A DNA stretch of 62,213 nucleotides, filler included, from Stramenopiles sp. TOSAG23-6 (Eukaryota), in NCBI GenBank assembly GCA_900128565.1. It is 28 parts of 28 records of this genome, joined end to end, with 100 filler letters (N's around TTAATTAATTAA, not from the genome) between each part and the next. Parts side by side here need not be neighbours in the genome. Positions count along the whole stretch, not along the records: positions 4,503 to 6,648 come from LT638271.1; 27 more parts are not named here. The stretch is one strand, 5' to 3'. Numbering within the stretch: the stretch's first letter is position 1; every line of letters begins with the position of its first letter. Positions 5,726 through 6,601 of the stretch are shown here, piece by piece. The notes beneath the pieces are model-generated. The model searched no databases, had not been told where the DNA came from, and was given only the letters and a program-made list of their open reading frames with translations. The position numbers were made by a program, and so were the translations under genes.

Positions 5726-5862
5726 ATGGATTTACCTCTGAAGGTTGGAGTTCGCGTGATATTTATACGTGATGGGAAAACCGGTAAACTTTGCTCATTG
5801 GGATCTACAAATTTCAAAGCGGGGGTTTGGTGTGGAGTAAGTTCTTCATTCGTTAAATCGAG

Positions 5863-5893
<31 letters not shown>

Positions 5894-6601
5894 TCATTTA
5901 TTTCGACTCCATCTTCTCAATATCCGTTTTATTTAATATAACCCTTACCACATGTTGAACTAGATGCACAGTTCAAAGATCATGGTCGTCATAACGGTAC
6001 CGTACAGAACATCACTTACTTTCGATGCGCAGAGGGACAGGGAGTTTTTGTTAGGCCTAGCAGCCTTCGTGTACTTGTTGATGAACCGAGAATACCGTCT
6101 AGCGTTTTATTCGAAAGCCACTGTAAAGCTTTTCACTTTTCTGAGAGAAAGCAAAAGTGGCAATTGTGCAGTAAGAATAAACATAGAGTTGAATTGTCCC
6201 TCGACCATACTAATAAAACGGTGTGTCTCAATCTATTTGATGTAGGTAGTCGTCAGAGAATATTTTGTCAACTTTTAGGAAAAGACACTTTTTTGGAACA
6301 CAATTCTGGAAACGATAAATCTTGGGTTGTGCGATGTACGACTAATACTACTACACATGAAGAAGTATTTGCGCTACAGTTTGCCTCGGTAAAAGAGTCC
6401 AAAAACTTTGCGCATCAATACAATGATGTTAAAGCTTTATCATTCAGAAATTTAGTGGAAAACAAAAAAGTTCCTGATGGTTCTCAGTATCAAAACGTGT
6501 CCCACGAAATAAAAGATAAACTTGGTATATCACAAAATACAAAATCAAATATATTGCCAACACAAGAGAATTCTATTTTACGCTCTCAACATCGGAAATA
6601 G
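5726..6601 (+). CDS. CAP-Gly domain protein with a probable PH/RanBD-like domain; exons 5726-5836, 5954-6601
   Basis: GSTNFKAGVWCG|VELD...GRHNGTVQNITYFRC...GVFVRPS is a CAP-Gly motif; DKSWV...FALQF...FA is RanBD/EVH1-like. Confidence 0.85.
5837..5953 (+). other. Divergent intron, GTAAGT...CAT
   Basis: TGT GGA|GTAAGT...CTTACCACAT|GTT GAA CTA GAT; this junction restores WCG-VELD; little similarity to the repeat family. Confidence 0.87.

Follow-up and report, generated by a model that had tools for sequence, protein, structure and literature searches.

A CAP-Gly gene split by a 117-nt intron

The locus is a two-exon gene for a protein with a CAP-Gly domain, read on the plus strand. Exon 1 (5726..5836) runs from the start codon through 37 codons to a Gly codon, ends in phase 0 with TGT GGA, and aligns from position 9 onward of a CAP-Gly profile of 108 domains as well as with the N-termini of two proteins, P0062 and P0063. 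The intron that follows (5837..5953, plus strand) splits the CAP-Gly domain and is present in a single copy in the window, the whole stretch of 62,213 bases that was analysed. It opens with the 5′ splice site GTAAGT (5837..5842), continues with 20 mixed bases and a run of 25 T (5863..5887), at which the contigs of other sequencing runs break, and closes with 66 bases ending in CCACAT. The 3′ splice site, placed from the sequence and from the grid of cuts described below, is the CAT at 5951..5953, a pyrimidine-A-pyrimidine triplet with adenine next to last. Exon 2 (5954..6601) starts with GTT GAA (V-E-L-D), stays open for 215 codons and stops at TAG (6599-6601). It encodes the second half of the CAP-Gly domain and then a domain with weak RanBP1/WH1-like matches; its PDB matches are to dynactin CAP-Gly and Ran-binding domains. 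Translation of the unspliced sequence meets an in-frame TAA at 5939-5941, and the stretch 5837-5953 therefore has to be removed.

The last 30 nt of the intron are 67% pyrimidine and 40% T, a T-rich stretch interrupted by A, for which there is no agreed tract threshold. A candidate branch-site region (5934..5948), 6-16 nt upstream of the 3′ end, holds the motifs TTAAT, ATATAAC and CTTAC, whose adenines are candidate branch points. Contigs of X3 (an independent DNA run, 5900-6585) and X7 (5911-6147) carry the same T at 5953 and have no listed difference at 5951-5953; over 5900-6585 the X3 contig shows 5 differences from the window sequence. The sole listed difference nearby is 5948 C>T (CTTAC to CTTAT), seen in contigs from two other runs; with this change the first intron base would form a G-U instead of a G-C pair, and a possible branch adenine would be kept.

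Transcript data were consulted as contigs of three RNA-library runs, alongside one DNA run. No contig in these four runs joins 5836 to 5954, as the contigs end at the T-run. RNA-library contigs cover 5550-5820 and 5911-6147, representing either unspliced RNA or DNA carried into the library, and a poly-A RNA library contig (X8) covers 6034-6299 of exon 2 with zero differences, which hints at expression of this exon. Many apparent joints at 4537-4765 were rejected as cross-matches among copies of a repeated intron family, since they also appear in the DNA run. Protein word searches with P0001 (against proteins of near length), with its residues 1-70 (against shorter proteins) and with the Hep_59 ORF gave zero matches, and hence neither spliced transcript fragments nor named relatives.

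The window joins 28 scaffolds of about 2.1 kb each, ordered by length, with Ns, has a G+C content of about 30% and includes three redundant scaffold pairs (100%, 99.9% and 95% identity). A Pfam scan of 20 long ORFs matched 14 of them to ordinary eukaryotic families, among them actin-related, aldo-keto reductase, kinesin, GET3/ArsA, WW, enkurin, UCH, reprolysin, methyltransferase and Laminin_B. The scaffold that carries the CAP-Gly gene (4503-6648) is present in seawater metagenomes and metatranscriptomes. PDB comparisons of the GET3 and actin-like proteins did not discriminate a larvacean from another lineage. The Laminin_B domain lies in a 379-codon intron-less ORF (43219-44355, minus strand), for which the nearest cluster in the protein atlas (score 0.98) bears mostly giant-virus labels (Nucleocytoviricota); the domain was for that reason dropped as a sign of an animal host, and the ORF may be a viral-type gene in the genome or a viral insertion. 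The Rfam scan of the window yielded 5S rRNA and nothing else, and the window has no tRNAs. The 5S rRNA gene (85.8 bits) is found at 51039-51157 and in duplicate at 53251-53369, both on the minus strand, at the very end of the scaffold and adjoining an aldo-keto reductase gene. At 48400-48800 (plus strand) an MnmE/GTPBP3-like gene shows a frame jump near 48637, and the conserved segment that should link its N-terminal domain to the helical part after it is apparently missing; mis-assembly, deletion or an unusual intron are possible causes. Two scaffolds at 17954-22318 have a higher G+C content (0.38-0.40) and long intron-less ORFs (504 and 248 codons) without a Pfam match, and may be of other origin than the remainder.

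The repeated intron family of the window

The window carries a family of introns of about 100 nt built in the following order: a GTATGT or GTACGT donor, CAAATTCGA, a T-run, the palindrome TTTCGTACGAAA, TACCTAAC, GAAATATTT, and AAAATAC plus 2 nt at the end. Examples are found at 55823-55926 and 49612-49707 on the plus strand and at 27676-27791 and 53654-53749 on the minus strand. The blocks of the family are strongly over-represented in the window, with 19 occurrences of CGTACGAAA against 0.34 expected, 47 of TACCTAAC against 0.91 and 30 of GAAATATTT against 3.19; literature matches to TACCTAAC were unrelated primers only, among the matches listed. A profile of 14 aligned full copies, with which the window was searched, gives dozens of matches in 53 kb of unique sequence. 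Many scaffolds start or stop inside a copy, indicating that the family breaks the assembly, and in a seawater metagenome family sequence attains a summed contig depth that exceeds that of the flanking genes by a factor of thousands. One member lies next to the CAP-Gly gene, in an actin-related gene on the same contig (4665..4765, minus strand; profile match 4667-4763, E 3.9e-20), where the borders can be read as GT..AC or, with a donor 8 nt upstream, as GT..AT (4667-4773), both in frame.

An automatic scan for donors and acceptors between open frames returned 148 candidates with antisense and low-complexity noise, and was replaced by hand curation. The curated set holds 17 complete introns with coding sequence on both sides whose removal keeps long open frames; four of the loci, in aldo-keto reductase and kinesin genes, are backed by domain logic, and the borders of family copies were anchored on GT by the analyst. 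With this anchoring, 13 introns end in AT, two in TT, one in AC, one in GT and none in AG. The last triplet is CAT in 10 of 17, and a GTA(T/C/A)GT donor is likewise present in 10 of 17. Since 16 of the 17 are copies of one family, the tally does not represent independent events. AT makes up 10.6% of the dinucleotides inside the curated introns, so that a single AT end is not significant by itself; AG makes up 1.2%. AG ends were seen exclusively in partial copies that lack a 5′ end (around 76 and 22524). Stretches inspected for further non-family introns (7057-7393, 10245-10383, 12760-13060, 34830-34930, 48100-48800 and 54780-54920) offered no fixable borders.

At 10 of the 17 loci the last two bases of the exon equal the last two of the intron; at six they differ, and at one (1771/1777-1896) the answer depends on the donor. 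The two TT-ending family introns, 1296-1403 (plus strand) and 40436-40535 (minus strand), both follow an exon ending in TT, which identifies the last two bases of a family intron as the duplicated target and thus as a by-product of insertion. The 2-nt duplication is accordingly not fixed to AT, and these two copies use either a TT acceptor or a cut two bases earlier (TT..AC/TT..AT); at both loci, homology to aldo-keto reductases and kinesins gives back the expected protein. In duplicated copies generally, a cut two bases earlier (NN..AC, for instance AT..AC) leaves an identical mRNA. The earlier note on this DNA had counted five of six introns without a matching duplication as ending in AT, a proportion that is roughly reproduced by the present curation, with five of seven. 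The five are 1559-1738, 5837-5953, 38103-38240 (weak flanks), 53654-53749 and 60912-61011, and of the other two, 28518-28644 ends in GT and 4665-4765 in AC, or in AT with the donor 8 nt upstream.

Two family loci carry variation of their own. At 1771-1896 (plus strand) the family copy's own donor reads ATAAGT, not GTATGT, and an in-frame GTAAAT lies 6 nt upstream; both cuts preserve the reductase frame, and the donor may have been lost by mutation and a cryptic one may have taken over. The introns at 27676-27791 and 60912-61011 (both minus strand) are the same family intron on two 95%-identical scaffolds, which read AAT and AGT before the donor, a synonymous exon change, and whose T-runs differ by 16 nt.

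The intron at 5837-5953 stands apart from this family. The earlier note had described it as lacking the family blocks and as having no upstream AT to duplicate, and both statements hold: CGTACGAAA, TACCTAAC and GAAATATTT have zero matches inside it, and the exon ends in GA (GGA) where the intron ends in AT. The family profile aligns to 5838-5887 only (model positions 2-50), with 18.4 bits. Full shuffles of the intron reach this score in 1 of 300 cases, but controls with GTAAGT and the 25 T kept in place average 19.6 bits (sd 2.6), and 189 of 300 reach 18.4; the weak match is therefore one to the donor and the T-run. The 66 nt at the 3′ end have no match to the family profile, and in a blastn-short search of the window neither they nor the 26 nt at the 5′ end found a second copy (best E 0.17 and 0.19, respectively). 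The intron ends show no terminal inverted or direct repeat and no flanking repeat or target duplication. X3 depth over 5871-5942 is 5.25, a single-copy level, as against tens of thousands for family sequence on the same scaffold. A decayed family copy had been named beforehand as the finding that would speak against the note's reading; the comparison instead leaves no family similarity beyond donor and T-run, no repeats and a single copy. By its sequence, the intron has no detectable derivation from the repeated family.

The alternative that survives best takes 5837-5953 for a very ancient or partly replaced copy, of this family or of another transposon. Its AT end would then be a relic of an AT target duplication whose counterpart in the exon later mutated, and thus still a by-product of transposition that the machinery merely tolerates. 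The window's copies of the family are diverse and old, and the sequence of donor followed by a long T run is common to the intron and the family copies. The pair at 27676-27791 and 60912-61011 illustrates how such a relic could arise, as the exon-side AT has become GT while the 3′ AT stayed. In Fritillaria borealis, non-canonical introns are reported to occupy species-specific positions and to have a MITE-like origin (PMC11282704). Set against this are the profile score, which is no better than that of the controls, the unmatched 66 nt, the lack of terminal repeats and the single-copy depth. An old, decayed transposon origin keeps a real share of the probability, though clearly a minor one.

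Placing the splice junction by homology

The position of the junction is fixed by the CAP-Gly domain. Residues 1-37 of exon 2 match positions 31-64 of the 65 positions of Pfam CAP_GLY (E 5.1e-09), so that exon 2 must start in the middle of the domain. A full-library protein search with exon 2 returned 105 proteins at E <= 0.001, and 108 segments cut from 65 of them made up the CAP-Gly profile. Scored with this profile, the cut 5836|5954 (GT..AT) gives 70.5 bits, a GA..AC cut 65.3 and a GT..AG cut to 5971 57.9. A grid of cuts was then scored with the last base of exon 1 at 5818-5849 and the first base of exon 2 at 5925-5989, comprising 499 in-frame, stop-free pairs. The best score, 71.4 bits, is shared by five one-base slides that encode an identical protein (AG..CA, GT..AT, TA..TG, AA..GT and AG..TT), among which the protein evidence cannot choose; GT..AT alone has a GT donor, the GTAAGT at 5837..5842, and it alone has a next-to-last adenine.

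Of the 108 CAP-Gly domains, 106 have a glycine at the junction; at the next three positions, 106 domains have V, I or L, 85 have E and 93 have L. A GA..AC cut would place D at the junction glycine, a residue found there in 0 of 108 domains. The spliced product aligns with P0062 (E 2e-23) and P0063 (E 3e-22) without a gap at the junction, and both of these proteins have the same two-domain layout. The GTAAGT donor and the CAT end claimed for this intron are thus present as described, and the junction between them is set by CAP-Gly homology. The weight of the AT end comes from this setting: the junction is fixed by a near-invariant residue, and there is no AG option that keeps it.

A standard GT-AG intron would require the CAP-Gly domain to be divergent at this point. 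The nearest AGs (5961..5971) are a TAG ending at 5963, which could be joined to a donor at 5841, and a CAG ending at 5971, which could be joined to the donor at 5837; both models are in frame and stop-free, and the scarcity of AG inside the curated introns fits a cell in which AG is still read as a signal. Both acceptors were rejected on score. The grid contains six GT-AG models with 45.2-65.1 bits, the best being 5841-5963 (GTTCTT to CTAG) with 65.1 and 5837-5971 with 58.8, deficits of 6.3 and 12.6 bits relative to GT..AT. The 6.3-bit margin is solid but not overwhelming. The two models would delete E-L-D or V-E-L-D-A-Q, residues that include the well-kept E and L; moreover, the GTTCTT donor at 5841 is far from the GTA(T/C/A)GT of the curated introns, none of which ends in AG. 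A conventional GT-AG intron at this site is therefore unlikely.

Somewhat less probable still is a pseudogene or a mis-assembled contig, in which 5837-5953 would be an insertion that is never removed. The assembly is a draft whose short scaffolds contain gaps and redundant sequence, RNA-library contigs reach into the 3′ part of the intron, and the window's MnmE-like gene has the frame jump mentioned above (about 48637). Against such a reading, the exons are open and only the exact join 5836|5954 makes them score as a complete CAP-Gly domain, exon 2 continues through its 215 codons into a second recognisable domain, and the independent DNA run reproduces the region.

A nonconventional intron of the euglenid or diplonemid kind, removed without the spliceosome and defined by pairing of its ends, is improbable. 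Marine diplonemids are reported to carry many non-canonical introns (PMC12621601). Here, the first five intron bases are perfectly complementary to CTTAC at 5944-5948, and the end-pairing measure of 4.39 exceeds that of all shuffles (mean 0.65, maximum 3.55, n=30). However, the fold with 10-nt flanks is unremarkable (z 0.10, with 107 of 200 shuffles folding equally well), the end-pairing measure lies above shuffles in 0 of 16 family introns, and the donor is a textbook U1-type GTAAGT. CTTAC is equally readable as a branch site, and the pairing is for this reason treated as a lead only.

Least probable of all is a minor-spliceosome (U12-type) intron: such introns can have unusual terminal dinucleotides, and close to the 3′ end there is a C/T-rich element that finishes in AC, but the adenine of this element is just 6 nt from the intron end and the first eight intron bases, GTAAGTTC, presumably represent, as judged by eye, the major-type and not the extended minor-type consensus. 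If the host is a larvacean, the reported lack of a minor spliceosome in that lineage (PMC13326754) would also count against it.

AT as a probable acceptor

The preferred reading is that a CAP-Gly gene is interrupted here by a genuine spliceosomal intron, 5837-5953, with a standard GTAAGT donor and a non-standard AT acceptor (CAT|G), that is not detectably derived from the repeated family; a probability of about 0.8 is assigned to it. In the proposed mechanism, an ordinary major-type (U2-type) spliceosome would recognize the GTAAGT donor, while the 3′-end machinery of the host would take a pyrimidine-A-pyrimidine triplet with a next-to-last adenine instead of a strict pyrimidine-A-G. The branch site would lie 6-16 nt before the intron end, and CAT, a few bases farther downstream, would be the site chosen. 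By analogy with the changed U2AF proteins of Fritillaria, the 3′-end factors may be altered, an analogy that may not fit the lineage of the host.

An intron outside the family, without target duplication and with GT..AT ends forced by homology, implies that AT ends other than those left by family insertions can also serve the cell as acceptors. The earlier note had proposed that AT is preferred by the host machinery and is not only a by-product of transposition. Its second part stands for 5837-5953, whereas in family copies the end dinucleotide follows the duplicated target. For its first part, there is now one AT acceptor independent of family duplication; a general preference does not follow from what is the sole border-fixed non-family intron. 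That GT..AT is the main intron class of a marine eukaryote, either an unsequenced larvacean lineage or an unrelated protist, and possibly independent of Fritillaria borealis, is a tentative and rather doubtful extension.

Nearly all eukaryotic introns end in AG, and genomes that break this rule reveal how far the spliceosome can drift. If the extension were true, the host would have a spliceosome with a textbook 5′ site whose 3′-end rule has moved from AG to AT; F. borealis has lost GT as well. A host outside the Fritillaria lineage would mean that the 3′ splice-site rule has shifted a second time, independently, while a relative of Fritillaria would provide a good worked example of a known phenomenon. 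Splicing at AT ends is itself already known, and 5837-5953 adds a further case. It also serves as a clean test case, separating what the machinery accepts from what insertions leave behind.

Several known systems resemble the introns of this window in part. U12-type introns and the rare U2-type AT-AC introns are examples of non-GT-AG termini removed by the spliceosome, and duplicated family copies, for which the AT..AC reading gives an identical mRNA, could be read in the same way. The intron at 5837-5953 is unlike them, since GA..AC would replace the glycine kept in nearly all CAP-Gly domains and its 5′ site is of the major type. Another partial likeness is found in the introns of euglenids and of hemistasiid and eupelagonemid diplonemids, abundant marine protists for which non-GT-AG ends, a proposed transposon origin and duplication-like junction repeats are described (PMC12621601). 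In that description these introns have no U1-type donor and need end pairing, whereas 5837-5953 has GTAAGT, no significant fold and a complement of only 5 bp.

The repeated family itself is reminiscent of Introner or MITE introns of Micromonas, Aureococcus and dinoflagellates, in which one splice site comes from the target-site duplication, as reviewed in PMC11282704. It shares with them a short element of about 100 nt with its own GTATGT donor, a 2-nt duplication (10 of 17 curated loci) and a high copy number, with dozens of copies in 53 kb and contigs that break inside them. In classical Introners, however, the duplication supplies AG and the introns remain canonical, unlike in the window family. 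The intron at 5837-5953 is no Introner in this sense, as it has no blocks, no duplication and a single copy.

The closest parallel is found in the Fritillariidae, larvacean tunicates in which non-canonical introns with a 3′ AT were reportedly described by Henriet and colleagues in 2019. A text search for GT/AT as a named intron class found no paper, which says little because slashes and figures are unsearchable. According to Soo et al. 2026 (PMC13326754), more introns finish in AT than in any other dinucleotide in both F. pellucida (44%) and F. borealis (34%). The same source reports that the last triplet of non-canonical introns is nearly always pyrimidine-A-pyrimidine, which often also occurs before the 5′ site, and that duplicated, divergent U2AF subunits recognize these 3′ ends (PMC13326754). 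The preprint version of that study notes that a regular pyrimidine tract comes before the 3′ AT, and it uses the next-to-last adenine as an annotation rule (bioRxiv 10.1101/2025.08.15.670264). In F. borealis, non-canonical introns are derived from MITE-like elements with target duplications, and GT-AG introns tend toward conserved positions, according to a review (PMC11282704).

The intron at 5837-5953 shares with these introns the AT end, the next-to-last adenine and the pyrimidine-A-pyrimidine triplet; the stretch before its end is T-rich but interrupted by A. Both systems belong to marine plankton, and in both, short transposon-like elements that duplicate their target gave rise to related introns. 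In the window a target of 2 nt is duplicated, mostly AT but also TT, whereas for F. borealis an exonic TAC triplet is described (PMC11282704). Introns of F. borealis mostly start with AG, with about 5% GT/AG, whereas all 17 curated introns of the window can start with GT. The published account for Fritillariidae is one of a major-type spliceosome with altered 3′-end recognition, the same arrangement that is proposed here for 5837-5953.
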